In this document: positions 29,921 through 55,882 of the stretch, piece after piece
How the letters are laid out: each line of letters begins with the position of its first letter
How positions within the stretch are numbered: the stretch's first letter is position 1
Assembly: GCA_037441425.1 (NCBI GenBank)
Contig: JBBISF010000004.1
Coordinates: 10,215-74,214 of the forward strand
DNA: 64,000 nt
Source: Verrucomicrobiia bacterium
Lineage (GTDB): Bacteria > Verrucomicrobiota > Verrucomicrobiia > Palsa-1439
Direction of reading: 5' to 3'
The notes under the pieces: model-generated
What the model was told of the DNA's origin: nothing
Databases searched by the model: none
What the model saw: the letters and a program-made list of their open reading frames with translations, nothing else
Program-made: the position numbers and the translations under genes

Positions 29921-32692
29921 ATGGTATCGGTGAGCAGCGATGGGCCGGTTCTTCAGGCAATACACATGATCTCCGAACTTATACGTCTCAACGAAGACGC
30001 GCGGCGCGAGAAAAACTGGAAGCGGTGGGGACCGTACCTTGCGGAGCGCCAGTGGGGCACGGTGCGCGAAGATTATTCGGAGTGGGGGAATTGCTGGGAT
30101 TATTTTCCGCATGATCAGGCACGCAGTCGTGCTTACCGTTGGGGCGAAGATGGCTTGCTCGGCATCACCGACCGCGAATGCCGGCTGTGTTTGGCCCTCG
30201 CCTTGTGGAACGGCAAGGATCCGATTTTGAAGGAGCGGTTGTTTGGATTGACCGGCCCCGAAGGTAATCACGGCGAGGACGTGAAGGAGTGTTATTACTA
30301 CCTCGATTCAACGCCGACGCACTCCTACCTGAAGGCGCTCTACAAATATCCGCAGGCGGCCTACCCCTATACCCGGTTGGTGGACGAGAACCGCCGCCGG
30401 GGCCGGGGTGACCCGGAATTTGAACTGCTTGATACCGGGGTGTTCGACGACAACCGGTACTTCGATGTCGTTGCCGAATATGCCAAAGCCTCGCCTGATG
30501 ACATCTTGATGCGCATCACGGTCGCCAATCGCGGGGCGGCGAAGGCGACGATCCATTTATTGCCGACGTTGTGGTACCGGAACACGTGGGTGTGGGGCTG
30601 CAAGCACGAAGGCTGCTGGATCCGGCCGACGCTGGAACTGCAGAACGACGGCACGGTCGTTGGCAGCCATGTTGGTTTCGGCAAACATGTGTTTGTGGCG
30701 GACGGCGCGCCGCAGTGGTTGTTCACCGAAAACGAAACCAACACCCAAAAACTGTTCGGCACCGATAACTGGACGAAGTTCTCCAAAGACGCATTCCATG
30801 ACTACGTTATCGGCGGCAAGACCGCCGCGGTGAACCCCAAGCGGACCGGCACCAAGGTGGCGGCGTATTACCAGTTCGAGATACCCGCCGGGCAGGAAGT
30901 TGTTGTGAAGGCGCGCTTGTCGGCTGTAGCCGTGGGCGATGACCGCGGCGGATCGAAGGGGATGCCGCGCTCAGCGAGCGCGGCGACAGGTTTGGGCAAA
31001 GACTTCGACCAAATTTTCGCCGACCGGATCCGCGAAGCCGATGAGTTCTACGCGGCGAGACTGCCGGCCAACTTGAGCGCCGAGGAAAGGCGTGTCGCCC
31101 GGCAGGGCTATGCCGGGTTGCTCTGGTCGAAACAGTTTTATCACTACATCGTCCGTGACTGGCTCGACGGCGATCCGCAGCAACCACCGCCGCCGGAAAG
31201 TCGGAAGCATGGGCGCAACAGTGACTGGCCGCATCTCTACAACCGCGATGTGATTTCGATGCCGGACAAGTGGGAGTATCCGTGGTACGCCGCGTGGGAC
31301 TTGGCGTTCCACATGATCCCGTTCGCGAAGGTGGATCCGCAATTTGCCAAGGAGCAGCTCGTCCTCTTCCTGCGCGAGTGGTACCTGCACCCGAACGGGC
31401 AATTGCCGGCCTACGAGTTTGCGTTCGGCGACGTGAATCCGCCCGTCCACGCGTGGTCGTGCTGGCGCGTTTATAAGATGACCGCGCCACCAGGGAAGCG
31501 CGACCGGGAGTTTTTGTCGCGCACGTTTCAAAAGCTTATCATCAACTTCACCTGGTGGGTCAACCGCAAGGATGCCGGGGGCCGGAACATCTTCGGCGGC
31601 GGCTTTCTCGGTCTGGATAACATCGGCGTATTCGACCGCTCAAAGCCGTTGCCCACCGGCGGGCATCTGGAACAGGCGGACGGCACGGCGTGGATGGCGT
31701 TTTTCTGCAACACGATGCTCGCCATGGCGCTGGAATTGGCGCGCGACAATCCGGCCACGGAAGACATGGCTTCAAAATTCTTCGAGCATTTCGTGGCCAT
31801 CGCCGATGCGATCAACACGCTGGGCGGCACCGGCTTGTGGGACGAAGAAGACGGGTTTTACTACGACCAACTGCACGTGGACGGCCAGGTGATTCCGCTC
31901 CGGGTGCGGTCGCTGGTTGGGTTGCTGCCGTTGATTGCGGTGGAAGTGTTGGAGGAAGAGATCATCGCCAAGCTGCCCGGCTTTCGCAAACGGATGAACT
32001 GGTTTCTCGAACACCGGAAAGACCTCGCCCAGCACATCGCGTACATGGAAACCGAAGGCGCGGAGGCGCAACACGGTCACCGCTTGCTGGCCATTCCCTG
32101 CCGCGACCGACTGGAGCGCGTGTTGCGCTACCTGCTCGACGAAAACGAGTTTCTGTCACCGTATGGCATCCGCTCGGTTTCCAAGTATCACGCGCAACAT
32201 CCGTACGTCCTGCCGGTGAACGGCCAGGAATTTCGGGTGGACTACGAGCCGGGGGAATCCGCAACCGGCCTTTTCGGCGGCAACTCCAACTGGCGCGGCC
32301 CGATCTGGTTTCCGATCAACTACCTGCTCGTCGAAGCGCTGGAGCGCTACCATCATTTCTACGGCGATGCGCTGAAAACCGAATGCCCCACCGGTTCCGG
32401 CAATTGGCTGAACCTCCAACAGGTTGCTGATGAATTGCGTGCCCGGCTGGCGCGCATCTTCCTGCCGGATGCCCAAGGCCGTCGCCCCTGCCACGGCGAC
32501 GAACCCCGGTACGTCAGCGACCCATACTGGAAAGACCTCGCCTTGTTCTACGAGTACTTCCACGGCGAGACCGGTCGTGGCGTCGGGGCGAGCCACCAAA
32601 CCGGCTGGACCGCGCTCGCAACGCGTTGCATCGAGGACGCGGCAACGGCTGGCGATGCGCGAGCGGGATGCCGGCGATGTTATCCGTTTTGA
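29921..32692 (+). CDS. GH63-like (alpha/alpha)6-barrel glucosidase family protein
   Basis: 923 aa. WEYPWYAAWDLAFH and surrounding motifs are typical of GH63/MGH-like glucosidases. Confidence 0.5.
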   Translation: MVSVSSDGPVLQAIHMISELIRLNEDARREKNWKRWGPYLAERQWGTVREDYSEWGNCWDYFPHDQARSRAYRWGEDGLLGITDRECRLCLALALWNGKDPILKERLFGLTGPEGNHGEDVKECYYYLDSTPTHSYLKALYKYPQAAYPYTRLVDENRRRGRGDPEFELLDTGVFDDNRYFDVVAEYAKASPDDILMRITVANRGAAKATIHLLPTLWYRNTWVWGCKHEGCWIRPTLELQNDGTVVGSHVGFGKHVFVADGAPQWLFTENETNTQKLFGTDNWTKFSKDAFHDYVIGGKTAAVNPKRTGTKVAAYYQFEIPAGQEVVVKARLSAVAVGDDRGGSKGMPRSASAATGLGKDFDQIFADRIREADEFYAARLPANLSAEERRVARQGYAGLLWSKQFYHYIVRDWLDGDPQQPPPPESRKHGRNSDWPHLYNRDVISMPDKWEYPWYAAWDLAFHMIPFAKVDPQFAKEQLVLFLREWYLHPNGQLPAYEFAFGDVNPPVHAWSCWRVYKMTAPPGKRDREFLSRTFQKLIINFTWWVNRKDAGGRNIFGGGFLGLDNIGVFDRSKPLPTGGHLEQADGTAWMAFFCNTMLAMALELARDNPATEDMASKFFEHFVAIADAINTLGGTGLWDEEDGFYYDQLHVDGQVIPLRVRSLVGLLPLIAVEVLEEEIIAKLPGFRKRMNWFLEHRKDLAQHIAYMETEGAEAQHGHRLLAIPCRDRLERVLRYLLDENEFLSPYGIRSVSKYHAQHPYVLPVNGQEFRVDYEPGESATGLFGGNSNWRGPIWFPINYLLVEALERYHHFYGDALKTECPTGSGNWLNLQQVADELRARLARIFLPDAQGRRPCHGDEPRYVSDPYWKDLALFYEYFHGETGRGVGASHQTGWTALATRCIEDAATAGDARAGCRRCYPF

Positions 32693-32896
32693 CGGTGACA
32701 GGTGGAAGCGCATTGTGCGCGACTGACGGACTGGTCACGACTTGGAGAGAGACAACATGTTCGATGGCGAGCTTGATCTTACCGAAGGAAGTCTCCAGTT
32801 CCACGCGGTGTGACAGGACTCGGCCCTGTAGCCGATTCCCATTGAGAAACAGCAGGCTGCGCTGCATCGATGCAAGTCCGGGTTGGAGAACGATAG

Positions 32897-33835
32897 TTGC
32901 CGAATATGGGTGGATGGCGTATGCTGGCCGCCGTCTTGTTCGACATGGAAACCGCAGGACACTTTGCCAGCACCGCCGTCGCCACACCGCCGTTCGCCAA
33001 GCGAGCCATGCGCGCGATCTGGTCGGTGTTGCCGCGGTGTGCTCTCAGTTACAACTTGGGCAAGCTGGTGACCCGGACGTTACTCCGGCCATCCGCGACT
33101 ACATGGCCGGTGTTGGAACGATTTGGTGGGAAGTGCCCCATGGTGTTGGACCTCGGCAGCTTTGTCGCGAATGATCTTTATTGTCTGGATGATCATTATG
33201 AGGCGGTGACGCTCCGTTTGTGGCGCCGTTTGGCCCGACAATCCCGGACGATCCTCGATGTCGGCAGTCACATCGGGACTTTCGCGTTGGTTGCGGCTGC
33301 GGAAAACCAAGCGGCACGCATCATCGCCGTGGAAGCAACGAGTGGACACTTCACAAGTCTCCGGCACCATAGTGCCGCGTTTCCCAACGTCATTCCTGTG
33401 CAGGCTGCTATCGCCGACCGGGCGACGGAAATGTGGTTTTGCGCTGACGGAAGCAATGATGGTGGTGGCTATCTGAGTGTTGAACGCCCCCCGGGTGTCG
33501 AATGCCAGCCGGTTGCCACGCGCACGCTGGAGCAGCTTTGCGCCGAGTACGACATCGGCCAGTTGGATTTGATGAAGTTGGATGTGGAAGGGTTTGAGCA
33601 CAAGCTCTTGGCGGAGGACCGTGAATTTTGGCGTCGGCACGCCCCGACGCACCTGATTGTGGAGATCACCAGCGACCGCCGCAATTGTGGCCCGACGAAT
33701 GAATTGTTCCGCGCGATGGCGCGTCGTGGCTATCGCGCCCAGCGCGTTCAAGGATTGTATACGGTCCCATGGGGTAAGCCCGAGGCGCTGGCCAACTGGC
33801 ATTTTACGCGTGGGGAGGCGGCCAGCGCGCGTTGA
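32897..33835 (+). CDS. FkbM-family SAM-dependent methyltransferase
   Basis: ILDVGSHIGTFAL...LMKLDVEGFEHKLL matches the FkbM domain signature. Confidence 0.7.
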   Translation: MPNMGGWRMLAAVLFDMETAGHFASTAVATPPFAKRAMRAIWSVLPRCALSYNLGKLVTRTLLRPSATTWPVLERFGGKCPMVLDLGSFVANDLYCLDDHYEAVTLRLWRRLARQSRTILDVGSHIGTFALVAAAENQAARIIAVEATSGHFTSLRHHSAAFPNVIPVQAAIADRATEMWFCADGSNDGGGYLSVERPPGVECQPVATRTLEQLCAEYDIGQLDLMKLDVEGFEHKLLAEDREFWRRHAPTHLIVEITSDRRNCGPTNELFRAMARRGYRAQRVQGLYTVPWGKPEALANWHFTRGEAASAR

Positions 33836-34956
33836 TGCCAGAGCTACGGCCCAAGCGGATCATGGTGTTTTGTCTCTCGGGTTTGGGAGATGCCATCCTG
33901 GCGTCGGCGGCGCTGGCGGCGCTGGCCGCGCGTCCCGATCAGTTCCGCCTGACGCTCTTGACGATGTTTAGAAGTGTTAAGGAGTATCTGGACGACCAAC
34001 AGTTCACACCGGATGTTCGCTTGATCCAGTTTCTCGGAATGTCCAAGTGGAATATCTTCCACCATGCTTGGCCATTACGAAAAGAGCAGTTTGACGTCAG
34101 CGTGTTGCCATATGCAATGAACCGGCTGGGATATAATCTGATGAGTCGGGTCGTGGGGGCACGTTACCGGATCGGTTTCCGGTATCAACGGCAGTTCATC
34201 ATCAATGCCCCAGCGCTCAATCAGTGTGTAATTGATGAAGATCCGTCGTTGCACGCGGTGCAAGAGAACCTGCGTTGGGCATCGGTGCTCTGCAACACGG
34301 GAGTTGACGCGTTGCCGGATGAGTTTTCATACCGGATTCATCCGTCCGCAGTGACCGCTGCGGATGCGTATCTCAAGGAACATAAATTAGATCAGGCAGC
34401 GCCGCTTATCGGCATCCATGCCGCCTGCAATTCACTCAAGAACCAACACTGCCGCTGCTGGCCACCGATTCGTCTCGGCGAGTTCATCCGGCGGTTTCGC
34501 GAGCAAACGCCGGGGGCGCGCTTTATCTTGTTCGAGGGGCCAAGCGACCAACAGATGAACGAAGCCGTGGTCGTGGCTGCCGGTCCGGCATCAGGGGATA
34601 TTGTCGTCGCCAAGATGTTACCCCTGCGTTTGGTTGCGGCGCTCGTAAAGCGTTGTCACCTTTTTCTGAGCAACGATTCCGGTATGATGCACACGGCGGC
34701 GGCCTGTAAAGTGCCTTGTGCGTCCATCTTTGGGCCGACGAATCCAGCTTGGGTGCGGCCTTGGAAGACCCAGAACATTATCGTTAGCCGACAACTGCCG
34801 TGCAGCCCTTGTTTTTACTACTCCAGCCGGCCCTTGGTGTGTCCGGCTCACCTGGATTTTGCCTGTGTGCGTGACATCGCTGTGGACGACGTTCTCAACG
34901 CCGTCCAACAACTGCTCGCTCAAACTCATGTCCACGCAATCCCCGTCCAAACCTGA
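33832..34956 (+). CDS. Glycosyltransferase family 9 (heptosyltransferase-like)
   Basis: LSGLGDAIL...LFLSNDSGMMHTAAACKVPCASIFGPTNP are GT9 hallmarks. 4-nt overlap with the FkbM gene. Confidence 0.75.
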   Translation: MMPELRPKRIMVFCLSGLGDAILASAALAALAARPDQFRLTLLTMFRSVKEYLDDQQFTPDVRLIQFLGMSKWNIFHHAWPLRKEQFDVSVLPYAMNRLGYNLMSRVVGARYRIGFRYQRQFIINAPALNQCVIDEDPSLHAVQENLRWASVLCNTGVDALPDEFSYRIHPSAVTAADAYLKEHKLDQAAPLIGIHAACNSLKNQHCRCWPPIRLGEFIRRFREQTPGARFILFEGPSDQQMNEAVVVAAGPASGDIVVAKMLPLRLVAALVKRCHLFLSNDSGMMHTAAACKVPCASIFGPTNPAWVRPWKTQNIIVSRQLPCSPCFYYSSRPLVCPAHLDFACVRDIAVDDVLNAVQQLLAQTHVHAIPVQT

Positions 34957-37357
34957 GCTGCGTCAGGTCGGTCTTTGGATTACGCTGACAGCGGCGCTGG
35001 TGTATTGCGGGTGGCTGGGGTGGCACTGGTTGTCGCTGGGGTATAGCGACAAGGAACTGGCGGGATTTGTCTCCCGGGTCTGGGACATCCAACGGTCGCT
35101 GGCCGGGCATCACGGGCTGCCGTGGTGGACGCCGTGGTTCATGGGCGGAGCCAGCTACGGATTGGATTACTCCCATGGACTGTACCTGATTCCCTGGCTG
35201 CTGCTGGCGACGATGTTCAGCTTGCCGGTGGCGGGCAAGCTTTGCGCCTTGATCGCCATCTTTGCGGGAACGGTGGCGATGTACTGCTGCGCCCGGTATT
35301 TTCTTAAGAACGACTGGGCGGCAACTTTGGCGGCACTGGTGTTTCTGTTGCATCCCGAGCAAATCATCCGTGCCGCCGGGGTCGAGCAAATGACGGTCAT
35401 CATGTGCTTGCCGTTCATCCCGCTGACATGGTGGTGGTTCGCGCGGGTGCTGGATACCGGCAAACTGCGGGACTCGTTTTGGTGCAGTGTCAGCGCGGTC
35501 TGCCTGTTGGGAATGGACCACCAACAGGCGCTCATCCAGTACATGTTTCTGGCCTGCTATTTCGTTTATTGGCTTTGGAGCAATGGGGCTGTGCGACGGG
35601 TCTCAGCCATCCGGATGTGCGGACTCATCGCCATCTTCACCGTGGGCCTTGGCGCGTTCTTCATCGTCACCAGATTTGTGGAGTCGCATTACATCAAACA
35701 GTCTTACGATGAGCCGGTGACGGATTTGCAGCGCAATTACGCGTTCAAGAGTCTGTTGGCGCTGGTGGACCGGGATGGCACGATCACCCGGCAAGCCATC
35801 CGCGGCGCGGTCGATGCCGTCAACGCCCGCGGCGGTGTGCGCAGCCAAGCCGAATTGACCCAACTGCAACGGCTGGCTGGTCTCCAGATTGATTCGCCGG
35901 AGAAGTACGCGGGCCTCGTGTTGTTGGCGGTGTTGACGATCACGATGTTGTTCAACCGGGATCGGGTGAACCGCCGGTTATTCTGGTTTTTCGTGGGCAT
36001 GTTGTTGGTGACGGTGATGCTGGCCAGCGGACGCAGCAGTGTGTTCAGCGCCAACTGGCAAACCTGGCAGGCGCTCACGTCGCTCGCCGGGGTGCCGGGA
36101 TTGGTCACGCGCGCGATCTGGTTGGCGTTGCTGACGATGGCGACGTTTCTCGTATTGTTCATCCATCGCAAGCTCACGACCACCCGGAAACGCATCTTTG
36201 CCGGCGGGGCGTTGCTGGTGTTTCTCTTTCTGCCAGCGTTCCACATCCTCGCCGTCGTGCCGTTCTTCAAGGAGTGGCGCGCGCCGTTTGTGTTTTATGA
36301 TTTGCCGGCGGTATTCTTCGGCGCACTGCTGGCCGGGTTTTTCGTGACGGATGGATTGCCGTCTGCATCGCCGGCGAAAGTGGTGGCCGGTCTCGGGTTG
36401 TTGCTGGTGGTGGATTACTGGCCGTATCAGCAACCGATGAAAATCAATGACGTGCCCGGACACACGTTCCAAAACTTGCGCGCCACCTACACAGCACTGG
36501 CCGATGATCGGGACTGGGTTAAGACCTATGCATTTTCAGGACGACCATTCCATTTGCTCGGTCCCCGGTGGAGCGATAAACCACAGGTATCGGAGACGTT
36601 TGACAGCCAAGCGTACCCGCCCGGAATGGGGTTGCTCATCCCGAACATGGGTGGCGAATTATTCAATCTGGTCGGCGCGCGCTATGTCGTCTTCGACAAG
36701 ACCGATCCCGGCGGCAACGCTCAACTCGCCAGCCAATTGCGGCAAGCGGATCCGGTGGTGACCGAGAACGAAGATTTTGTCGTCTTTCGCAACGCCGGCG
36801 CGCGACCATATCTGACGGCGTACCTGCGCGCCTGCGCATACTTGGGCGATTTCCGGCAATCGTCGCGGCTAGCGCTTACCTTGTCGAACAAGGGCTGGCC
36901 ATTGGTGCAAATCAATTCGCCCCAAGAAGCCGCCAGTTACGAACGGGTGTACGCCCCGCCGGCCGAAGCGCTCCGGTTCAGCGGCATCCCGAATCTATAT
37001 GAACTCCATCCCGATTCGCTGCCGCTGTTGCCGGCAACGTCGAGTGAGCCAGTCACCCTGACCAGTGTCCAGTTGCGCCGGGAGAGCAATTACCGGATCC
37101 ACATGGAACTGACTGTGCTGAGTCCCTGCACCCTGGTCATTGCCGAGAGTTACTATCCTTTCTGGCAGGCGACGGTGGATGGGAAACCCTCCGCAGTGCT
37201 GCGGGTTAACTGCGGTTTGATGGGCCTGTCATTGCCGGCAGGACAGCACAGCATCGAGATGCTCTTTCGGCCGCCGCGCGCCTACGCGGTGGCGGCTGGG
37301 GTCAGTGTGCTGACATTGGTGGCGGGGTTGATCCTTTCACGGCGCGGATCTCCATAA
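34928..37357 (+). CDS. Large polytopic membrane protein, YfhO-like GT-C glycosyltransferase candidate (copy 1)
   Basis: ~810 aa. More than 12 N-terminal TM helices, ~300-aa extracytoplasmic domain, terminal TM helix. Start taken at ATG 34928, overlapping the GT9 end. Confidence 0.45.
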   Translation: MSTQSPSKPELRQVGLWITLTAALVYCGWLGWHWLSLGYSDKELAGFVSRVWDIQRSLAGHHGLPWWTPWFMGGASYGLDYSHGLYLIPWLLLATMFSLPVAGKLCALIAIFAGTVAMYCCARYFLKNDWAATLAALVFLLHPEQIIRAAGVEQMTVIMCLPFIPLTWWWFARVLDTGKLRDSFWCSVSAVCLLGMDHQQALIQYMFLACYFVYWLWSNGAVRRVSAIRMCGLIAIFTVGLGAFFIVTRFVESHYIKQSYDEPVTDLQRNYAFKSLLALVDRDGTITRQAIRGAVDAVNARGGVRSQAELTQLQRLAGLQIDSPEKYAGLVLLAVLTITMLFNRDRVNRRLFWFFVGMLLVTVMLASGRSSVFSANWQTWQALTSLAGVPGLVTRAIWLALLTMATFLVLFIHRKLTTTRKRIFAGGALLVFLFLPAFHILAVVPFFKEWRAPFVFYDLPAVFFGALLAGFFVTDGLPSASPAKVVAGLGLLLVVDYWPYQQPMKINDVPGHTFQNLRATYTALADDRDWVKTYAFSGRPFHLLGPRWSDKPQVSETFDSQAYPPGMGLLIPNMGGELFNLVGARYVVFDKTDPGGNAQLASQLRQADPVVTENEDFVVFRNAGARPYLTAYLRACAYLGDFRQSSRLALTLSNKGWPLVQINSPQEAASYERVYAPPAEALRFSGIPNLYELHPDSLPLLPATSSEPVTLTSVQLRRESNYRIHMELTVLSPCTLVIAESYYPFWQATVDGKPSAVLRVNCGLMGLSLPAGQHSIEMLFRPPRAYAVAAGVSVLTLVAGLILSRRGSP

Positions 37358-38243
37358 TCGCCCCGGCACCGGCGAGCCAACTCAACAGGGCGAGCAATAA
37401 ACCGGGAACGGCCAGCACGGCAGCAAGCAAGATCATCACAATGCCCGATGGAGTCCAGATGTGTTCACGATCAGCGCCGGACAGCCAGTGCTGCAACAAA
37501 TAAGGCGGGAAGCCCAGCCGGTTCAGCGCGCTCTGCACCCAGCCGAAGGGATCGTATTCCCAGCTCACGGTTCGCAGTGTTTCGGCCCGCAACCCGGCTC
37601 GTTCCAACGCGCCCCGCAACGCGTCCGGCGTGAAGTGGCCGAGATGCCGGGGGACATCGAGATGTTGCCAGTGTTGCCGGGAAAAACGGAACTGCCAACT
37701 CGCCAGATTCGGCACGCCAATCACCAACCGCCCGCCGGGCTTGAGCAGCCGGGCGCAGGCTGCCAAGCGTTCCCGCGGATCCGGCAGGTGTTCCAGGACT
37801 TGGTTCATCACGATTAGATCGAATTGTGGTTCGTCGCCTAGAGTGCCAAGTGCGCCCACCCGGACGTCCAACCCATGCTGGTCGCGCGCAAACGCGGCGC
37901 TTTCCTCCGTGCGCTCCAAGCCGGTGACCTGCCAACCGTGATCGCGCAGCGCGGCGAGCATCCAGCCGTGGCCGCAGCCGATTTCCAAAGCCTGGCCGGT
38001 ACCGCGTTCGCGCGTCCAAGCCCGGACACGCCGGCGGTGGATGAACCGAAAGAAACGCAGGATCAACGGATGATAGGCCCGGTAAGAGGCGGGGTAATAC
38101 GCATCAAGACTCGCGGGTGGCGGCCACACGAAAACAAATCCGCACGGCTGGCACCGGTGGAGGGCGAACGATTGACCGGTTACGTGATCGCGGGCATCGA
38201 GGAAATGCCCGGTCTCCTCCGCATGACAAAGCGGGCAGGTCAT
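37302..38243 (-). CDS. Class I SAM-dependent methyltransferase with N-terminal Cys4 zinc-ribbon
   Basis: CPLCHA...CQPCG ribbon, then LEIGCGHGW methyltransferase motif I. ATGA overlap with the upstream GT2. Confidence 0.7.
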   Translation of the reverse strand: MTCPLCHAEETGHFLDARDHVTGQSFALHRCQPCGFVFVWPPPASLDAYYPASYRAYHPLILRFFRFIHRRRVRAWTRERGTGQALEIGCGHGWMLAALRDHGWQVTGLERTEESAAFARDQHGLDVRVGALGTLGDEPQFDLIVMNQVLEHLPDPRERLAACARLLKPGGRLVIGVPNLASWQFRFSRQHWQHLDVPRHLGHFTPDALRGALERAGLRAETLRTVSWEYDPFGWVQSALNRLGFPPYLLQHWLSGADREHIWTPSGIVMILLAAVLAVPGLLLALLSWLAGAGAIMEIRAVKGSTPPPMSAH

Positions 38244-39151
38244 GGTCGCGGATGATTGTAGTGCGACAGTTTCCAATCCACCACGCTGAGCGGCCGGGCG
38301 ACCTGATCCTTGTAGGTCCGCGCCAGATAAATGCAAATGACCATCAGGAAGAACGCGACGTAGATAAAATCGAGCGCCACCAACCAGTGGAACTTGTCAT
38401 TGATGACCAACGCGATGTTCAGCGCGATCAGCAACGGGAACGCGTACACCGACAACCGCAGCGGGAACGTGGATGAGCTGAGGATGCCGGCCACGGCAAA
38501 GACGATGGCGCGCCAAAGATTGTAGTGGGTCTGGCCGATGATGCGTTTCTGCCGGGAGTAGGGGATGCCTTTGCGTTGGAACCCAACGTGGGCGACTTCG
38601 GTGCGCAGAAACGGGAACGTGGAATGGTTCGCCAAAATCGCGTCGCGCACCGGGGCGGAGACGAGAAAGAACTCCGCCATGTCGAGGACAATATCGCTGT
38701 CGGCGACCAGGCGGTTCAACCGGTAGAACGCCTTGCGCGCGAGTTGCCAGGGAAGCGGTTCAGGACGCTCGTCGCGCCGCCCATAGACGATGTCGTGGCC
38801 GGCTTCCCATTCGGCGATGAACTGGGGAATCATTTCCGGCGGGTCTTCGCAGTCCACGTCAATGATCGCCACCGCCGCGCCGCGCGCGTGGCGCAGACCG
38901 GTGGCGACGCTGGCTTCGTAGCCGAAATTGCGCGAGAGCGTCAGCACCTGCACCTGCGGGTTCTGCTCTCGGAGTTTGAGAATCGCCGACAACGTCCGGT
39001 CGGCGGAGCGGTTGTTGGTGAAGATCAACTCGAAGTCATACCGGTTGGCCAGCGGCGCGAGGGCCTTCTGCAACCGCTCATAAAACAACGGGATGGCTGT
39101 CTCTTCGTTGAACACCGGACAGACGATCGAAATCAACTGACGCTCGCTCAT
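38240..39151 (-). CDS. GtrB/ArnC-like GT2 polyprenol-phosphate glycosyltransferase (two C-terminal TM helices)
   Basis: ISIVCPVFNEE, DVDCEDPPE (DxD). Two TM helices at the C-terminus as in GtrB. ~304 aa. Confidence 0.75.
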   Translation of the reverse strand: MSERQLISIVCPVFNEETAIPLFYERLQKALAPLANRYDFELIFTNNRSADRTLSAILKLREQNPQVQVLTLSRNFGYEASVATGLRHARGAAVAIIDVDCEDPPEMIPQFIAEWEAGHDIVYGRRDERPEPLPWQLARKAFYRLNRLVADSDIVLDMAEFFLVSAPVRDAILANHSTFPFLRTEVAHVGFQRKGIPYSRQKRIIGQTHYNLWRAIVFAVAGILSSSTFPLRLSVYAFPLLIALNIALVINDKFHWLVALDFIYVAFFLMVICIYLARTYKDQVARPLSVVDWKLSHYNHPRP

Positions 39152-39930
39152 GATAGGTGTTGCCGCCACCAGTTTATCGTTTCGCGCAAGCCGGTGTCGA
39201 GATTGTAGCGAGGCCGCCAACCGGTGGCGAGCAACCGGGTGTTATCAGCCACGATAGGCAGCGGGTCGCCGGGAGCGTAGGGGCGCGCGCCAAACTTGAG
39301 CAGTTCCGGTCGTCCGATGATCGCGCCAATCTGACCGGCCAGCGCGCGGACGGTGATCGGCTGGCCGCTGCCGATGTTCACGGCCCCGGTGAGATTGCTT
39401 TCCGCGACGGCGACGATGGCCCGCGCAACATCCTCCACGTGCAAGAAGTCGCGGACCTGTTCGCCGGGGGTTAGTTCTGCCGGTTGGCCGCGCAGGAGTG
39501 ATTGAATGATGTACGGCACCAGCCGTCGCGGGTCTTCGCGCGGACCATATTGGTAGAACAACCGCGGCCAGGCAACTGGCGTGTCGAGTTGCTGGAGCTT
39601 CTCAAAGAGTTCCAGTTTGCATTGCGCGTAGAGCGTGGTGGATTCACGCTCGATACAGGTGCCAATGGCAACAAAACGTTGGGTGTTGACTTCCTGGGCC
39701 AAGCGAAGACTGGCGGTAACCCATTGCTGGTTCAGTGGTGAGTCGAGGTACTTACCGGGTTCGGCGTACCACGCGAGGTGAAGGCAGATATCGAACTGCG
39801 AACGCGGAAAACGGAAACCAGGCGAGAGCAGATCGCGGCCGAGGGTGGTCACTTCGTGACCGGCCTGTTCCAGTACAGCGGCGACGTGGAAACCGATAAA
39901 GCCGGTGGCGCCGGTGAGCAGGACTTTCAT
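39148..39930 (-). CDS. NAD(P)-dependent sugar epimerase/reductase (short RmlD-like 4-ketoreductase candidate)
   Basis: MKVLLTGATGFIGFHV Rossmann N-terminus. 260 aa. Coupled between the RmlC-like gene and the GT2 gene. Confidence 0.65.
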   Translation of the reverse strand: MKVLLTGATGFIGFHVAAVLEQAGHEVTTLGRDLLSPGFRFPRSQFDICLHLAWYAEPGKYLDSPLNQQWVTASLRLAQEVNTQRFVAIGTCIERESTTLYAQCKLELFEKLQQLDTPVAWPRLFYQYGPREDPRRLVPYIIQSLLRGQPAELTPGEQVRDFLHVEDVARAIVAVAESNLTGAVNIGSGQPITVRALAGQIGAIIGRPELLKFGARPYAPGDPLPIVADNTRLLATGWRPRYNLDTGLRETINWWRQHLS

Positions 39931-40436
39931 AGCAACGGCAGAGCTTGATCACGGGCAGAGACAGTCGGGTGGGGGATGGGCCACGGGATGGCCAGCTTGG
40001 GATCGTTCCAGCGGATGCCGCGCGCCAGTTCTGGGAAGTAGAAATTGGACATTTGGTAGAACACCTCGCAGTTGTCGGTGAGACATTGAAAACCATGCGC
40101 GTAGCCGGCCGGCGCGTAGAGTTGGCGGGGAGAATTGGCGGACAATTCAAACGCCTCCCATTTACCGGAGCGCACGTCCGCGATGACGTCCCAGATCGTG
40201 CCGGCAACGCAGCGGATCAGTTTGGTCTCGGGATGCGGCTCGGCTTGGAAGTGCAACCCGCGAATGGCGCCGCGCTGTTTGGTGAGCGTGGTGTTGCACT
40301 GCGGCCAATGGATGTTCAAGTTGTGCTCGGCGAATTCGCGTTCGCAATAGGTCCGGGCGAGGAAACCGCGTTCGTCAGCACGCGGTTCCAGATCAATCAG
40401 CCAGACACCCGGTAGTGACGTGGTGTGAAACTTCAT
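39927..40436 (-). CDS. dTDP/CDP-4-keto-6-deoxyhexose 3,5-epimerase (RmlC-like cupin)
   Basis: [30 protein letters not shown]...GLHFQ...HGF motifs. 169 aa. The ORF-track N-terminal extension is not credible (Arg/Pro-rich). Confidence 0.8.
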   Translation of the reverse strand: MKFHTTSLPGVWLIDLEPRADERGFLARTYCEREFAEHNLNIHWPQCNTTLTKQRGAIRGLHFQAEPHPETKLIRCVAGTIWDVIADVRSGKWEAFELSANSPRQLYAPAGYAHGFQCLTDNCEVFYQMSNFYFPELARGIRWNDPKLAIPWPIPHPTVSARDQALPLL

Positions 40437-41665
40437 ACAACCCGCGGCTCCGGAACGGGGATGATGAACTTGCCGCCGCGTTGTCGGTAGGCGGCTTGTT
40501 GCTGAAGAATCTCGTCGGCAAAGTTCCACGTGAGCAACAGGGTGTGGTCCGGCATCTGCGCCAACAACTGATCGGGGGCGAGGATGGGGATCCGGACACC
40601 CGGCATGTAACGGCCCTGTTTGTGTGGGCTGCGATCCACGACGAACTCGATGGTTTCGCGGCTGATGCCGCAGTAGTTGAGGAGCGTGCTGCCTTTGGCG
40701 GCGGCGCCGTAGGCGGCCAGCCGTTTGCCTTGGTGGCGGAGATCGGCGAGAAACCGGACGAGTTGGGCGCGGAGTTGTTCCACCCGGCGGGCGAAGTCGG
40801 CGAGGGAGTCCAGTCGGTTCACACGCCAAGCCGTTTCCTCGCGCAACAGGAGCGGGACGGATTCCCGGGTGCGTTGGTGGGATTCGCTGTGGACGAATTG
40901 GACGCGAAGTGAACCGCCGTGAATAGGGAGGCGTTCCACATCCAGCAGACGTAATCCGTGGCGCTGGGATAACCGGTCGAGCGCCGTCAGGGAGAAATAG
41001 CAGAGGTGTTCGTGGTAGATGGTGTCGAATTCAACGCGGTCAATGAGGTCTTTGAGGTAGGGAACTTCAAACTGGGCGACGCCTTCGTCTTTGAGCAGGA
41101 GCGCGACACCGCGCATGAGACCGTTGAGGTCGGCGACGTGGGCGAGCACGTTGTTGCCGATGATGACATCGGCCTGCCGGCGTTCGTTGCGCAGCTTGCG
41201 GGCGAGCGGTTCGCCAAAGAATTCGGCCAGGGTGGGGACGCCGCGTTCGGTCGCGACTTGGGCGATGTTGGTGGCCGGCTCAATGCCGAGCACGGGGATA
41301 CCGGCCGCGACAAAATTCTTCAGCAAGTAGCCGTCGTTGCTGGCGATTTCGATGACGAGGCTTTGAGGAGTCAGTTGCCGGGTGGCGATGAGTTTGGCGG
41401 CGCTGTCTTGGGCGTGCGCCAACATGGCGGCGGACGTGGAGGAGAAATAGAGGTATTCGCGAAACAGGATTTCCGGCGGCACGATCTCGGTGATTTGGAC
41501 AAGCGTGCAGTCGGGGCAAAACGCGAGGTCGAGAGGATAAACCGGCTCCGGGCGCGTCAGTTGGGCGGGGGTGAGATAGGAATTGGCGAGCGGCGTTTTG
41601 CCGAGTGACAGAACAACTTGTAGATTCTGTTTGCCGCAGGAACGACAGGTGTGACCGGTGGTCAT
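40433..41665 (-). CDS. NDP-hexose C-methyltransferase (TylC3-like: zinc-ribbon + class I MTase + C-methyltransferase C-terminal domain)
   Basis: CRSCG...CPDC zinc-binding N-domain, SAM-binding core, ~410 aa. ATGA overlaps on both sides. Confidence 0.7.
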
Positions 41666-42642
41666 GCGGTCGTCCCCAAGAACTGCCGGTACCAATCAAT
41701 CGTGCGCCGCAATCCGTCGTCGAGGGTGAACAATGGTTTCCAGTCGAGCACCCGGCGCGCCTTCGCCGCGCTGAGGTATTGCTGGCGGATTTCATGGATC
41801 GCTTCGTTGCGAACCTCCGGCTGAAGCGGGGAATTCATCAGGCCGAGGATGCGTTTCACGAGGTCCAGCACGGTGATCTGGATTTCGTTGGAGAAGTTGA
41901 ATGCCTGGCCGCGGAGCTTCGGGTTCTCGCCCAATTGTTCGGCCAACAACATATAGGCCGCCGCGCCGTCCTCGATGTAGAAGTAGTCGCGCACGAACTG
42001 ACCATCGGAGCGGATGAGGGGGCGTTCGCCGCGCAACACCGAGCGGATGGTGCCGGGTACAATGCGGTTCCAATTGAGATCGCCGCCGCCGAAGAAGTTC
42101 CCGCAGCGTGTGACGGCTACCGGCAAGTTGTAGGTAACGGCGTACGCCTGGGCGATGAGATCGCTGCAGGACTTGCTCACGTCGTAGGGATGCCGGCCTT
42201 GCAACGGCGTGTTCTCATCGTAGGGAAGTTTTTCCTGATCGCCATACGCTTTGTCGGATGACGCAAGCACGATCTGTTGGACGGTCGGGCTGCGCCGGCA
42301 AGCCTCCAGCAGCGACCATGTGCCGCCGATGTTGGTTTCAAAGGTGGAGACCGGATTGCGGTTGGCAATGGTGACGATTGTCTGCGCCGCGAGATGGATG
42401 ACCGTGGCGATTTCATATTCGCCAAGGATGCGTTCCAACAAGGTCTGATCCGTGATGTCGCCCCGGACGGTTTTCACTTGGTGAATGAGACCGGAGCGGA
42501 CGAGTTCGCTCTGCGGCACCCAGTCCCGGACGAGACAGACGACATCGGCACCGGCTTTCTGGAGGCGCGGTACGAGCCAACTCCCGACGAGACCGGTGGC
42601 ACCGGTGACAAACGTAGGACGATCACGCCAGAAGTTGTTCAT
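41662..42642 (-). CDS. rfbG: CDP-glucose 4,6-dehydratase
   Basis: [23 protein letters not shown] is a characteristic RfbG N-terminus. SDR-extended fold with YDVSK catalytic motif. Confidence 0.8.
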
Positions 42643-42645
42643 GGT

Positions 42646-43416
42646 TCAGCTCCACACCTTCCACGGGGCTTGGCTGCTTTGCCAGAGTGATTCGAGCGTC
42701 CGGGTGTCGCGCAACGTGTCCATGCACTGCCAGAAGTCATTGTGCCGGTAGGCGACGAGTTGCCGGTCGGCAGCCAATTTTTCCAACGGCTCGCGTTCAA
42801 AGACGGTCTGATCGCCGGCAATGTAGTCGAGCACTTGGGGTTCGAGGACGAAGTAACCACCGTTGATCCAGCCTTCGCCGATCTGCGGTTTTTCGGTGAA
42901 CTCTTTGACGAAATCGCCGTCGAATGTCAGCCCGCCAAACCGGGCGGGTGGCCGGACGGCGGTAATGGTCGCAAGTTTGCCGTGGCGACGATGGAATTCG
43001 AATAACCGGCGGAGATCAACGTTGGTCACGCCGTCGCCATAGGTCATGAGGAACGTTTCCTTACCGAGCAAACCGGCGAGACATTTGAGGCGGCCACCGG
43101 TTTGGGTTTGGTCGCCGGTATCCAGCAGGTGCACGAGCCAGTCTTCGCGTTCCTGAGCGTGCGTTTCCACGCGGCCTTTGCCGAGGTGGACAGTGAGATT
43201 ACTCTCCAGTTGATAGGACTCAATAAAGTAGCGTTTGATATGTTCGCCCTTATAGCCGAGCGCGAGAGCAAACTCTTTGAATCCGTGGTGGGCGTAGCTT
43301 TTCATGATATGCCACAGGATCGGCCGACCGCCGATCTCCACCATGGGTTTGGGTTTGATTTCGGTCTGTTCGGCCAAGCGCGTACCCAACCCACCGCATA
43401 GAATGACGACCTTCAT
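42646..43416 (-). CDS. rfbF: Glucose-1-phosphate cytidylyltransferase
   Basis: MKVVILCGGLGTRL...KPKPMVEIGGRPILWHIM. ~257 aa from ATG 43416. Confidence 0.85.
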   Translation of the reverse strand: MKVVILCGGLGTRLAEQTEIKPKPMVEIGGRPILWHIMKSYAHHGFKEFALALGYKGEHIKRYFIESYQLESNLTVHLGKGRVETHAQEREDWLVHLLDTGDQTQTGGRLKCLAGLLGKETFLMTYGDGVTNVDLRRLFEFHRRHGKLATITAVRPPARFGGLTFDGDFVKEFTEKPQIGEGWINGGYFVLEPQVLDYIAGDQTVFEREPLEKLAADRQLVAYRHNDFWQCMDTLRDTRTLESLWQSSQAPWKVWS

Positions 43417-43560
43417 TGGCAAATTAAGAAAGCCGGAGGCGCGGCGTCTTTGTTGATGTGGGTGCCACAACGAAGTTGGTAACCAGTTCTCACGGTTTTG
43501 CCAGCAGGTTTCTAGCATTCGGCTGGCGCTCGGTCAAGAATGGGACGCTTTACGATTTAA

Positions 43561-43651
43561 TTTTGATGTAGGGACAATGCTCTGCATCAAAATCTCTGTT
43601 TGTGATGTCCCGCGTCGACCAAGGTTTGGAGGTTTGACGCGCGTTGGTCGA
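43561..43651. promoter_or_regulatory. Two 8-bp inverted repeats plus a GTTTGGAG triple direct repeat in the divergent rfbF/lipoprotein control region
   Basis: TTTTGATG-N16-CATCAAAA and TCGACCAA-N21-TTGGTCGA. The region is lower in GC than the flanks. Confidence 0.25.
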
Positions 43652-43806
43652 GTTTGGAGCCTTTTTTGTAATTCTCCTCTGAACAGGTTCCAGGTAACGA
43701 GGTCAAGTCAAGGAAGGATCTGCCGATTTGTCTTTACAGGCACCGAGGGAGGATTTATCGGTCGGCCCGGTGGAGAGCCGTAATCCAACCCAGAGGAACA
43801 ATCATC

Positions 43807-44428: not shown

Positions 44429-45097
44429 GTGTCCAGCATCCTCACAACAGCAACTTTGCAGGTGCGGGTCCTTGAGGTGCGCCCGCTGACCGAAGCGACC
44501 TATGTGCTGCGATTGGAACGGCAGGGTGTGGCGTTTCGGGCCGGGCAATCCATCACGCTGGGTGTCAGCCGGATGCGAGTCAATCGCGAATACACAATTT
44601 ATTCGGGGGAACAGGACGATTACATCGACGTGCTGATCCGAGAGATTCAAGGCGGCACGGTTTCAGTAGCCTTACGCCGCTGTCCCCCGGGTGAACTGCT
44701 GGAGTGCAACGGCCCGTTCGGTTCATTTGTCATTCCAGAGCCATCAGATCGGTTGCGAAAATACCTTTTTATCGCTTCCGGCACTGGCATTGCCCCATAC
44801 CATTCAATGGTCCGGACCCATCCTGAGCTTGATTACCGGATCATCCACGGGATTCGCAATGCGCGGGAACAGTATGACCTTGCGGACTACGACCATGCCC
44901 GTTATGTCGCTTGTGTGACCGGTGAACCCGGTGGCGATTTTTCCGGGCGCGTCACCGCCTATCTCCACCAACACCCGGTCGATCCCGGCAGCCACTGCTA
45001 TTTGTGCGGCAACGGTCGCATGTTGACGGCCGGCTACGAACTGCTCCGCGAACAAGGCGTGCCCAGCGACCAGATTCATCTGGAGGCGTTTTTCTGA
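44429..45097 (+). CDS. Ferredoxin-NADP reductase-like FAD/NAD(P)-binding oxidoreductase
   Basis: REYTIYS (RxYS FAD motif), FIASGTGIAP NAD(P) motif. 222 aa. GTG start. Confidence 0.65.
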   Translation: MSSILTTATLQVRVLEVRPLTEATYVLRLERQGVAFRAGQSITLGVSRMRVNREYTIYSGEQDDYIDVLIREIQGGTVSVALRRCPPGELLECNGPFGSFVIPEPSDRLRKYLFIASGTGIAPYHSMVRTHPELDYRIIHGIRNAREQYDLADYDHARYVACVTGEPGGDFSGRVTAYLHQHPVDPGSHCYLCGNGRMLTAGYELLREQGVPSDQIHLEAFF

Positions 45098-46653
45098 TGC
45101 GCGTGGCCATTTCGTATCCGCCGATAGTTAACGAGCTGGGCCAGAAGGCCATGGTCTCGCAGAACCGCAACGTCCAGTATTTCAAGACGCCGACGTATCT
45201 GTTGCCGGTGGTGCATGCGCAAGCGGCCACCTGGTTGCGTGATCTCGGTCACGAGGTGTACTGGGACGACGGCAATGCTCAATTGAAAACCTTTGCGCAG
45301 TGGTACCGCGATTTGCTGGCATGGCAACCGGACCTAGTGGTGTTCGAGAGCACAACCCCGGTCATGAAGTTTTACTGGCGGCTGATCCAGCGGCTCAAAC
45401 AAGACCGACCGGATATCATGATCGTTATGACCGGCTATCACTCGATGCGGATGCCGTTCGAGACGATGAACAAGTGTCCTGTGGACATTGTCTTGCGCAG
45501 TAATCACGTCGATTTCGTGCTCAGCAAATTGGTGCCGTTTATTACCACGCACCCGGACTGGCGCACCACCTGCGCTCTTGAAGGATTGTTTATTCGCACG
45601 GCCAACGGTGAGCAACGGCAGACCGGCAGTTTCAAGCAGATTGAGCCGCTCGACAATTCGCCTGATGTGGATCGTGACCTGGTCCAATGGCAGCGGTACG
45701 CGTACGAGAACGGCAATTTTCTGCGAACGCCCGGCACCTACGCCACGAGCGTTGTCCGCGATTGCACATTCGGTAAGTGCACCTTCTGCCGCTATAACGG
45801 TCCTGATCTTACGTTTTCGATGCGATCGGTCCAGCGCAGTCTCGACGAATACCAGCGACTCATCGAGCAATACGGCGTCCGCGAAATCTTTGATGATTCT
45901 GGCGTGTGGTACCGCGGCAAGGAAGCCCGCGAGTTTTGCGAGGGACTCATCGCCCGCGGGCTGCACCGAAAGGGTTGCTACTTCGGCCTGAACACACGGT
46001 TTGCCTACCTCGATGAGGAAACCATCCAGCTCATGGGCCAGGCGAATTTCCGGTTCGTGTTGCTTGGCTTGGAAGCGTGCGACGACGAGACGCTCAGCCG
46101 GTTGAACAAGGGGTATCAAGTTGTGGACGTTGAACAGAATCTGCGCTGGTTCACCAAGTACGGTCTGCATCCGCACCTGACCGTCATGGTCGGTTACTAT
46201 TGGCAGACGCAGCAACAACTGGATCAGACCGTCCAGACGGTCCGGCAATTTATGTTCCAGGGCCTCGCGCGGACGCTCCAAGTCACCATCTGTACCCCGC
46301 TGGATTTCACCCCTTACCACCAAGAATGCTTGGACCAGGGCGTTCTGCTCACGGACGACTACGACGACTTCGACATGAGCAAAGTCATCGTGAAAACGCC
46401 GATCCCACACGAGCGGCATTACGAGGCCATCCGTCAGATGTACGGGATTGCCTTTCATCCGAAATTTCTCGCACGGCAAATTGCTTTCCTTGCCTCAGGT
46501 CGCATTCGGGATTGGGAATTCTTGTTCACTTACGGTTGGCGAGCTTTACGCCGCGTGCGCCAACACATCTTCAACTTGACTCAGGCCCGCCAACTTCAAA
46601 AACCGGCCAGCGGTGATGCTCACCACGCCGACGAACCCGCGTTGAACTCGTGA
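45097..46653 (+). CDS. B12-binding (class B) radical SAM protein
   Basis: N-terminal cobalamin-binding-like domain. Cys cluster CTFGKCTFC (Cx4Cx2C variant). ~518 aa. TGATG overlap with the reductase gene. Confidence 0.7.
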   Translation: MRVAISYPPIVNELGQKAMVSQNRNVQYFKTPTYLLPVVHAQAATWLRDLGHEVYWDDGNAQLKTFAQWYRDLLAWQPDLVVFESTTPVMKFYWRLIQRLKQDRPDIMIVMTGYHSMRMPFETMNKCPVDIVLRSNHVDFVLSKLVPFITTHPDWRTTCALEGLFIRTANGEQRQTGSFKQIEPLDNSPDVDRDLVQWQRYAYENGNFLRTPGTYATSVVRDCTFGKCTFCRYNGPDLTFSMRSVQRSLDEYQRLIEQYGVREIFDDSGVWYRGKEAREFCEGLIARGLHRKGCYFGLNTRFAYLDEETIQLMGQANFRFVLLGLEACDDETLSRLNKGYQVVDVEQNLRWFTKYGLHPHLTVMVGYYWQTQQQLDQTVQTVRQFMFQGLARTLQVTICTPLDFTPYHQECLDQGVLLTDDYDDFDMSKVIVKTPIPHERHYEAIRQMYGIAFHPKFLARQIAFLASGRIRDWEFLFTYGWRALRRVRQHIFNLTQARQLQKPASGDAHHADEPALNS

Positions 46654-54545: not shown

Positions 54546-54558
54546 GGCTGTACCTATT

Positions 54559-55815: not shown

Positions 55816-55882
55816 ATCGGCCTGACTGTGTAAGCCAAAACCATTGCCGCCGCCAGAGTTTTCGTGTACAAGCTGGCCCACC

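Follow-up and report, generated by a model that had tools for sequence, protein, structure and literature searches.

A 64-kb window of the genome of a Verrucomicrobiia bacterium (64,000 nucleotides; positions 10,215 to 74,214 of contig JBBISF010000004.1, assembly GCA_037441425.1) contains seven co-directional minus-strand genes, here called g1 to g7, that span positions 37302-43416 of the window (Table 1). They encode five putative enzymes of cytidine diphosphate (CDP)-sugar synthesis (g1 to g5), a GtrB-like glycosyltransferase of family GT2 (g6), and an S-adenosylmethionine (SAM) methyltransferase (g7); the nearest homologues, from uncultured Verrucomicrobiota, show 72-76% identity. Elsewhere, the identical genes were found on a single Logan contig of 5.9 kb. 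The original prediction had described seven such genes overlapping by four nucleotides (ATGA) at nearly every junction and had assigned each to a family. The genes are present, the overlap is found at five of the six junctions, and all seven assignments hold in profile and PDB comparisons. The exception is the g1/g2 junction, where a 3-nucleotide spacer (TGAACCATG) separates the genes. The start codons of g1 to g7 are backed by homology, with alignments that begin at about residue 1-7, at the start of the family profile. No Shine-Dalgarno sequence is recognizable at several of the downstream starts, and promoter and terminator scans found internal promoter-like and terminator-like sites in numbers at or below the shuffled expectation, which fits a single translationally coupled transcript. 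The arrangement of g1 to g7 thus reads as one translationally coupled operon. ATGA is the commonest overlap class in bacterial operons, so that the notable feature of this operon is its gene content and not its overlaps.

Table 1. Positions of the operon genes and of other features within the 64-kb window
Feature	Positions	Strand	Length	Basis or remark
g1, glucose-1-phosphate cytidylyltransferase (RfbF/DdhA)	42646-43416	-	256 amino acids	TIGR02623, PF00483
g2, NDP-glucose 4,6-dehydratase, CDP type	41662-42642	-	326 amino acids	TIGR02622, PDB matches, motif
g3, NDP-hexose C-methyltransferase (TylC3/MtmC/TcaB9 family)	40433-41665	-	410 amino acids	three Pfam domains, PDB matches
g4, RmlC-like NDP-4-keto-6-deoxyhexose epimerase	39927-40436	-	169 amino acids	PF00908, TIGR01221, PDB matches
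g5, short extended short-chain dehydrogenase/reductase, putative 4-ketoreductase	39148-39930	-	260 amino acids	PF01370, 82.6 bits
g6, GtrB-like polyprenyl-phosphate glycosyltransferase (GT2)	38240-39151	-	303 amino acids	PDB alignments, AlphaFold (AF2)/Foldseek
g7, class I SAM methyltransferase	37302-38243	-	313 amino acids	PF13489, 98 bits
YfhO-like multi-transmembrane protein, GT-C candidate	34718-37357	+		PF09586, transmembrane prediction
Divergent intergenic region 5' of g1	43417-43806		390 nucleotides	presumed promoter and 5' untranslated region, from sequence reading
Imperfect palindrome, ATTTTGATGTAGGG...CTCTGCATCAAAAT	43560-43593		14-bp stem	about 145-180 nucleotides upstream of the g1 start
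MGH1/GH63-like glycoside hydrolase (923 amino acids), FkbM-family methyltransferase, GT9 (heptosyltransferase family)	29921-34956	+		5' of the YfhO-like gene
B12-binding radical SAM gene	45004-46653	+		beyond the operon
Second module, multi-transmembrane open reading frame	54559-55950	-	463 amino acids	
Second module, small GT2	53832-54545	-	237 amino acids	canonical VDDGSTD and LDADLD motifs
Second module, YfhO-like protein 2	51388-53835	-		Pfam YfhO, 34.2 bits, above cutoff

The first five genes encode putative enzymes of a nucleotide sugar pathway. The g1 protein scores 369.4 bits against TIGR02623, past the equivalog cutoff of 300.25, and aligns over 1-255 of 255. The top PDB matches of g2 are the CDP-glucose 4,6-dehydratases 1RKX and 1WVG, both about 30 amino acids longer, and its motif SSDKAYG is aligned to TSDKCYD in these enzymes, where the deoxythymidine diphosphate (dTDP)-type enzyme 6BI4 has STDEVYG. 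The Asp-Lys (SDK) or Asp-Glu (TDE) pair at this place has a catalytic role. From these comparisons we read g2 as a shortened CDP-type dehydratase; it counts against this assignment that the top NCBIfam model, TIGR02622, matches at 214.5 bits, under its cutoff of 278.45, with the dTDP model at 176 bits. The g3 protein has all three domains of its family above their cutoffs: a Cys4 zinc domain (PF08421, 91.4 bits), a SAM domain (PF13489, 60.7 bits), and the C-terminal C-methyltransferase domain (PF08484, 200.5 bits), on whose presence the original prediction of a C-methylated sugar hinged. It aligns end to end with MtmC (4RV9; E = 8.6e-100, residues 6-410) as well as with KijD1 and TcaB9, and it keeps the zinc-binding CxxC...CxxC and the YHEH motif (IYHEHLCY, compared with IYHEHLSY in MtmC), in which the Tyr-x-Glu-His residues are reported as catalytic in work on TcaB9.

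The g4 protein matches PF00908 at 182.7 bits (cutoff 27), RmlC enzymes in the PDB at E = 1e-34, NovW (2C0Z) at 2e-26, and the CDP-specific WbcA (5BUV) at 9e-21. A score of 147.1 bits against TIGR01221, slightly under the equivalog cutoff of 155.75, speaks against a strict RmlC assignment, and the set of scores fits an RmlC paralogue with a different nucleotide or substrate. The g5 protein carries GATGFIG (GxxGxxG) and YAQCK (YxxxK), with a middle region shorter than that of canonical enzymes; by pathway logic it would be the reductase of the 4-keto group. It is very likely that g1 to g5 form a pathway to a CDP-C-methyl-6-deoxyhexose. The RmlC-like nature of g4 implies an L-series sugar, and not cereose or cillose. 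This implication and the convergent YfhO-like GT-C partner of the operon described below are additions to the original prediction.

The sixth gene encodes the protein on which the fate of such a sugar would depend. It had been described as a GtrB-like GT2 with two C-terminal transmembrane helices, and both sequence and predicted fold bear out a full-length homologue: a GT-A domain with a DxD motif is followed by juxtamembrane helices and two hydrophobic transmembrane helices at residues 230-248 and 253-271. The protein aligns with Synechocystis GtrB (5EKP) over residues 7-292 at E = 5e-42 and 34.5% identity, and more weakly with ArnC (2e-20) and the archaeal PfDPMS (1e-11); its best NCBIfam model is PgfS, at 163 bits, under the equivalog cutoff. 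An AlphaFold model computed from an alignment of 31 sequences had a predicted local distance difference test score of 82.9, and the top 25 Foldseek matches of this model in the PDB were all GtrB, ArnC, or DPMS structures, with TM-scores of 0.52-0.70. In the alignment, GtrB residues D94, D96, D99, R122, K180, and R197 correspond to D98, D100, D103, R125, R183, and R200 of g6, and R125, R183, and R200 vary little or not at all across the orthologue alignment A1. In GtrB, R122, K180, and R197 bind undecaprenyl phosphate (PMC12698845). On the basis of sequence and model, we are confident that g6 would make a polyprenyl-phosphate sugar.

The donor site is where g6 departs from its characterized relatives. 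In GT2 enzymes of GT-A fold, the nucleobase is recognized by an Asp located where strand beta2 ends; Asp39 of SpsA and the first D of BcsA are examples. The corresponding Asp of GtrB lies in the motif VNDGS. In g6 the position is taken by Asn47, in FTNNRSAD, and in the AlphaFold model Asn47 sits at the end of beta2 (strand 38-46). A second difference lies after the DxD, where Glu102 replaces the Gln of GtrB and DPMS. In place of the UDP/GDP-type donor site, made up of the beta2-end Asp and the Gln after the DxD, g6 thus has Asn47 and Glu102. Both positions have assigned roles in the relatives: Asp39 of PfDPMS, the donor of which is GDP-mannose, hydrogen-bonds N1 and N2 of guanine (PMC5526996), and the Gln helps to bind the metal-diphosphate as Q98 in GtrB (PMC12698845) and as Q93 in PfDPMS (PMC5526996). 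GtrB-type enzymes are described as users of UDP-sugars (PMC11127046). We found no report of a CDP-dependent polyprenyl-phosphate glycosyltransferase in a literature search that was incomplete and is thus no proof of novelty.

The distribution of these two residues was assessed in an exhaustive search of representatives at 50% identity, grouped by bit score against g6. In the query clade (at least 190 bits, n = 38), position 47 is Asn in 35 proteins and position 102 is Glu in 34, while in distant GtrB-like proteins (140-170 bits, n = 73) position 47 is Asp in 53 and position 102 is Gln in 66. By this comparison, Asn47 together with Glu102 is a signature of the whole g6 clade, the donor of which probably differs from a UDP- or GDP-sugar. 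Scanning one genome for each species, with an alignment of g6 orthologues as the sole seed, yielded 80 loci with 47-72% identity, a subset of at least 238 orthologous loci. Of 81 sequences, namely those of the 80 loci and of L001, which is another copy of g6 itself, 74 have Asn and 7 have Asp at position 47. None of the seven orthologues that keep Asp, from six Bacteroidota loci and one alphaproteobacterial locus, is accompanied by rfbF, the gene for the cytidylyltransferase, and in one of them (L019) the dehydratase beside the C-methyltransferase is of the RmlB type (305 bits with the dTDP model versus 90 with the CDP model). A Bacteroidia locus with the Asn-Asn motif (L062) carries rfbF. As a matter of chemical reasoning, an Asn amide could match the N3 acceptor and the amino donor of cytosine, while a carboxylate would pair with the ring N-H that uracil or guanine donates, which agrees with all seven Asp-type orthologues being without rfbF.

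The neighborhoods of the 80 loci connect g6 orthologues with CDP-sugar synthesis over a wide phylogenetic range. The loci come from Verrucomicrobiota, Acidobacteriota, Planctomycetota, Bacteroidota, Myxococcota, Omnitrophota, Eisenbacteria, Chloroflexota, Spirochaetota, Nitrospinota, and Proteobacteria. Neighbors were counted by tblastn with the window proteins, with rfbF homologues taken at 40% identity or more, because greedy calling of open reading frames proved unreliable in loci of high GC content, where antisense clusters 6, 10, and 16 were spurious. Among the 34 loci flanked by 8 kb or more on each side, 30 have rfbF and/or the C-methyltransferase within 10 kb of the GT2 gene, and 20 have both. 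In most cases these neighbors share the strand of the GT2 gene, often in one tightly packed block, and the linkage of the GT2 with CDP-sugar genes recurs in at least eight phyla. A methyltransferase of the g7 type is found within 150 nucleotides of the GT2 in 29/80 loci, which makes the GT2 and this methyltransferase a conserved core pair. A large protein with six or more transmembrane segments lies near the GT2 in 58/80 loci; where such neighbors could be assigned, they are PMT, PMT_2, DUF6311, or YfhO-like proteins, i.e., GT-C-type candidates.

Individual loci sharpen this connection. In a locus of the Chloroflexota (L046), the genes for RfbF, dehydratase, GT2, methyltransferase, C-methyltransferase, RmlC-like epimerase, reductase, and a PMT_2 (GT-C) protein follow one another and are succeeded by unrelated genes; in L071 the order is rfbF, dehydratase, C-methyltransferase, epimerase, GT2, methyltransferase, and reductase. 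No Leloir-type glycosyltransferase is encoded within either cassette, on contigs that both start just upstream of rfbF, so that the GT2 is the only encoded candidate consumer of the CDP-sugar there. In the Eisenbacteria loci, rfbF and the dehydratase gene accompany the GT2 with no C-methyltransferase present, indicating that the GT2 is associated with CDP-sugar synthesis as such. The dehydratases encoded after rfbF in L002-L081 are of two kinds, the short g2 type (about 326 amino acids, 50-81% identity to g2) and a canonical RfbG-like type (about 360 amino acids, with only 25-32% identity to g2). The Bacteroidota loci with Asp (L015, L017, L019, L021, L022, and L072) have a variant cassette, with a DUF6798 multi-transmembrane protein, a small cupin, the GT2, a g7-like methyltransferase, a C-methyltransferase, and an RmlB-type dehydratase, two DegT aminotransferases upstream, and no rfbF. 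To judge from its genes, the product of this variant is probably an amino C-methyl sugar on dTDP, which would then be passed to the lipid carrier.

One further locus bears on the product of the GT2. DprE1 and DprE2 epimerize a polyprenyl-phosphate sugar in mycobacteria. In a Phycisphaerales locus, the GT2 orthologue is directly followed by DprE1-like (215 bits) and DprE2-like genes (L057:10963-13034), which is independent support for a lipid-linked product. The same arrangement suggests that tailoring of the sugar on the lipid occurs in the g6 family.

From the synteny across phyla, the cassettes without an alternative glycosyltransferase, and the remodeled donor site, which together support transfer from a CDP-sugar to undecaprenyl phosphate, we favor, with moderate confidence, the reading that g6 uses the CDP-sugar of its operon. 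Several observations weigh against it. The text of the GtrB and ArnC structure papers does not name the uracil-contacting residue, and within the literature cited here only PfDPMS has a documented base-reading role for the beta2 Asp. The association of residue 47 with rfbF (Fisher P = 0.005) is uncorrected for phylogeny and represents only about two independent lineages. Three Asn-Asn orthologues adjoin a nucleotidyltransferase-GmhB fusion of a nucleotide-heptose pathway (L010:11057-14572, where an HddA-like heptose kinase adjoins too; L023:6942-8174; and L026:3698-5083) that would supply a polyprenyl-phosphate glycosyltransferase of this kind, and a separate subfamily with DN and Gln exists among the distant representatives. 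Both findings weaken Asn47 as a strict marker of rfbF linkage. Finally, the synteny of the GT2 and the CDP-sugar genes could mark two independent modifications of one glycan.

This last possibility leads to the most serious alternative, in which the two activities are separate: g6 would make an ordinary undecaprenyl-phosphate hexose, for example from UDP-glucose or UDP-N-acetylglucosamine, for YfhO-type side chains, a Leloir glycosyltransferase encoded elsewhere would use the CDP-sugar, and the genes would be clustered because both products decorate the same polymer. All characterized members of the g6 family use UDP or GDP donors, as this alternative expects, and the heptose-linked Asn-Asn orthologues show the motif outside rfbF-bearing pathways. 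Other glycosyltransferases are also at hand in the window, namely the GT9 and, at 46.6-49.7 kb, two GT2 and one GT4; the latter three might act on the CDP-sugar, which counts against assigning this role to g6. However, no other glycosyltransferase stands beside the CDP-sugar genes in L046 and L071, and the linkage holds in at least eight phyla, often as a tight same-strand block. Moreover, both nucleotide-contacting signature residues are altered in exactly the g6 clade, and the orthologues that keep Asp lack rfbF, with that of L019 beside an RmlB-type dehydratase. We therefore regard separate functions for g6 and the CDP-sugar as unlikely, at a level of doubt that still calls for attention.

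A second alternative concerns only the position of the methyl group. NovW, NovU, and NovS, an RmlC-like epimerase, a TylC3-family C-methyltransferase, and a 4-ketoreductase, make dTDP-noviose. By analogy, g4 could act first and g3 could methylate C-5, to give a CDP-5-C-methyl (gem-dimethyl) 6-deoxyhexose, with the rest of the scheme unchanged. NovW is among the PDB matches of g4 (E = 2e-26), and NovU, which methylates C-5 in noviose synthesis, is of the same family as g3, within which sequence alone does not separate C-3 from C-5 methylation; this weighs against a firm assignment to C-3. On the other side, the solved homologues of g3 are all 3-C-methyltransferases, with MtmC the best at about 9e-100; g4 is closer to true RmlC (1e-34) than to NovW; and the CDP-linked C-methyl sugars known, cereose, cillose, and vinelose, are 3-C-methyl sugars. 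A noviose-like route is in our estimation improbable, and it would be a minor variant of the scheme. A classical O-antigen operon for a CDP-3,6-dideoxyhexose (abequose, paratose, or tyvelose), the pathway of which rfbF and rfbG also open, was rejected as very nearly excluded, since the E1 (RfbH) enzyme that the original prediction had found missing is indeed absent (no DegT/RfbH homologue in the 64-kb window, best tblastn E = 3.9) and a complete C-methyltransferase stands in its place.

The last gene of the operon and a convergent neighbor would extend the pathway beyond the carrier lipid. The zinc ribbon foreseen for g7 was found as an N-terminal CxxC...CxxC, and to the earlier account we add a C-terminal hydrophobic segment at residues 261-295 that would serve as a membrane anchor. 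The PDB matches of g7 are generic methyltransferases only, and whether it methylates the sugar of the operon is, in our judgment, evenly balanced. On the opposite strand, the YfhO-like gene converges with g7, their 3' ends overlapping by 56 nucleotides (37302-37357); its true start is probably near 34928. The protein has about nine predicted transmembrane segments, one of them C-terminal, and a weak match to PgfM1. A homologue of 51-52% identity occupies the same convergent position in L005, and clear PMT_2, PMT, or DUF6311 proteins are found at the equivalent position in orthologous loci. Judged by these features, it is a probable extracytoplasmic transferase using the lipid-linked sugar. One point tells against this role: the match to PF09586 reaches 28.1 bits (cutoff 28.5) in the C-terminal part only. 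It also counts against the lipid-linked scheme that the window yielded no GtrA-like flippase; three small multi-transmembrane open reading frames were checked and had no Pfam match. Flippases are often encoded elsewhere in the genome.

Family membership and architecture of these proteins are observed in the comparisons described above, and from them we infer an order of reactions and a stereochemistry. In the scheme we propose, g1 would form CDP-D-glucose, which g2 would convert to CDP-4-keto-6-deoxy-D-glucose. With SAM, g3 would methylate the carbon beside the 4-keto group, most likely C-3. Epimerization by g4 would then take place at C-5, the only position left once C-3 is quaternary, giving the L-sugar, and reduction of the 4-keto group by g5 would yield a CDP-6-deoxy-3-C-methyl-L-hexose. 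This sugar would be transferred by g6 from CDP to undecaprenyl phosphate. The substrate envisaged for g7 is the same sugar, which it would O-methylate on CDP or on the lipid; its membrane anchor and fixed adjacency to the GT2 are the reasons why it may act on the lipid, and a vinelose-like sugar would result. A flippase would flip the lipid-linked sugar, and the YfhO-like GT-C would move it to a periplasmic or outer acceptor, for example lipopolysaccharide (LPS) or protein. We lean slightly toward the view that the operon is such a self-contained module, one that would attach a rare branched sugar to an envelope glycoconjugate via a lipid-linked donor.

Each part of this scheme has counterparts in known systems. 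The closest pathway for the sugar itself is the four-gene cereose/cillose operon of Bacillus cereus, reportedly described by Li et al. in 2017 (J Biol Chem 292:7636), which is said to share with g1 to g5 a cytidylyltransferase, a CDP-glucose 4,6-dehydratase, a SAM-dependent C-methyltransferase, and a 4-reductase leading to a CDP-3-C-methyl-6-deoxyhexose. That operon reportedly has no RmlC-like epimerase, gives D-series products, and has neither a polyprenyl-phosphate glycosyltransferase nor a second methyltransferase; its sugar is said to be placed on spore glycoproteins of a Gram-positive organism, whereas seven genes, an implied L-sugar, and a predicted lipid-carrier route are found here. 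The closest chemical precedent for the predicted class is CDP-vinelose of Azotobacter vinelandii, reportedly identified by Okuda and Suzuki in the 1960s as CDP-6-deoxy-3-C-methyl-2-O-methyl-L-talose and thus, by that account, likewise CDP-linked, 6-deoxy, 3-C-methyl, L-series, and O-methylated. We know of no genes or fate for CDP-vinelose and of no reported link to a lipid carrier. The CDP-cereose/cillose pathway is on record (PMC7725333).

For the lipid-linked steps, the GtrA/GtrB/Gtr* system of O-antigen glucosylation and Synechocystis GtrB (5EKP and 9NYC) share with g6 the architecture, the DxD motif, and the arginines that bind undecaprenyl phosphate. The donor of GtrB is UDP-glucose, whereas g6 has Asn and Glu for Asp and Gln and is embedded in a CDP-sugar operon; the partner there is of the Gtr type, whereas here the GT-C candidate is YfhO-like and no GtrA is encoded in the window. 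The CsbB/GtcA/YfhO systems of Bacillus and Listeria and PgfS/PgfM1 of Streptococcus mutans likewise combine a GtrB-like GT2 with a YfhO-family GT-C, a likeness for which the scores of g6 and the YfhO-like protein are all under the equivalog cutoffs. Those systems use UDP-N-acetylglucosamine or UDP-hexose donors, are Gram-positive, and target lipoteichoic acid or adhesins. Closest in logic is the Arn pathway (ArnC/ArnD/ArnT), in which a dedicated nucleotide sugar, a polyprenyl-phosphate glycosyltransferase, a modifier acting at the lipid stage, and a GT-C are encoded together. It differs in its donor (UDP-Ara4FN), in the deformylation, not methylation, that ArnD carries out on the lipid, and in its target, lipid A. 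By these comparisons, the parts of the operon are ordinary members of known families, and what would be new is their combination and the predicted CDP donor of a GtrB-type enzyme.

The operon sits in a glycan-biosynthesis region of about 26 kb. The GT9 gene upstream of the YfhO-like gene points to a glycan of the LPS core type as a possible acceptor. Beyond the operon, the B12-binding radical SAM gene is followed by the two GT2 genes and the GT4 gene already mentioned and by two methyltransferase genes. In the Omnitrophica locus L026, too, a B12-radical-SAM gene (L026:11837-13279) lies at a distance of one gene from the GT2 orthologue, and such genes may point to methylation of the same glycan by radical chemistry. 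A second lipid-linked glycosylation module occupies 51388-55950 on the minus strand. Its GT2 and YfhO-like genes overlap by 4 nucleotides, and the VDDGSTD of this GT2 offers an internal contrast to the Asn-Asn of g6. An Rfam search around the operon returned nothing meaningful, with no family for the intergenic region 43417-43806 or its palindrome.

All glycosylation outside the cytoplasm draws on polyprenyl-phosphate sugars as donors. We put forward, with slightly more doubt than confidence, that g6 and its orthologues may be a widespread clade, present in at least eight phyla, that uses CDP-activated rare deoxy-sugars, a specificity set by the changes of Asp to Asn and Gln to Glu, and that is embedded in a fixed cassette with a membrane-anchored methyltransferase tailoring the sugar on the lipid before a GT-C places it on the envelope. 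If this is true, a CDP-dependent clade would widen the donor repertoire of GtrB/ArnC/DPMS-type synthases, and the two residues would serve as a marker for predicting nucleotide specificity from sequence. The eight-gene cassette, cleanest in L046, would be transferable to a laboratory host for glycoengineering, and the operon may offer a genetic basis for CDP-vinelose-type sugars. Such a clade would also open a path for C-methyl-branched 6-deoxy sugars to the cell surface in many environmental bacteria not yet cultured, among them Verrucomicrobiota, Acidobacteriota, Myxococcota, Chloroflexota, and others.

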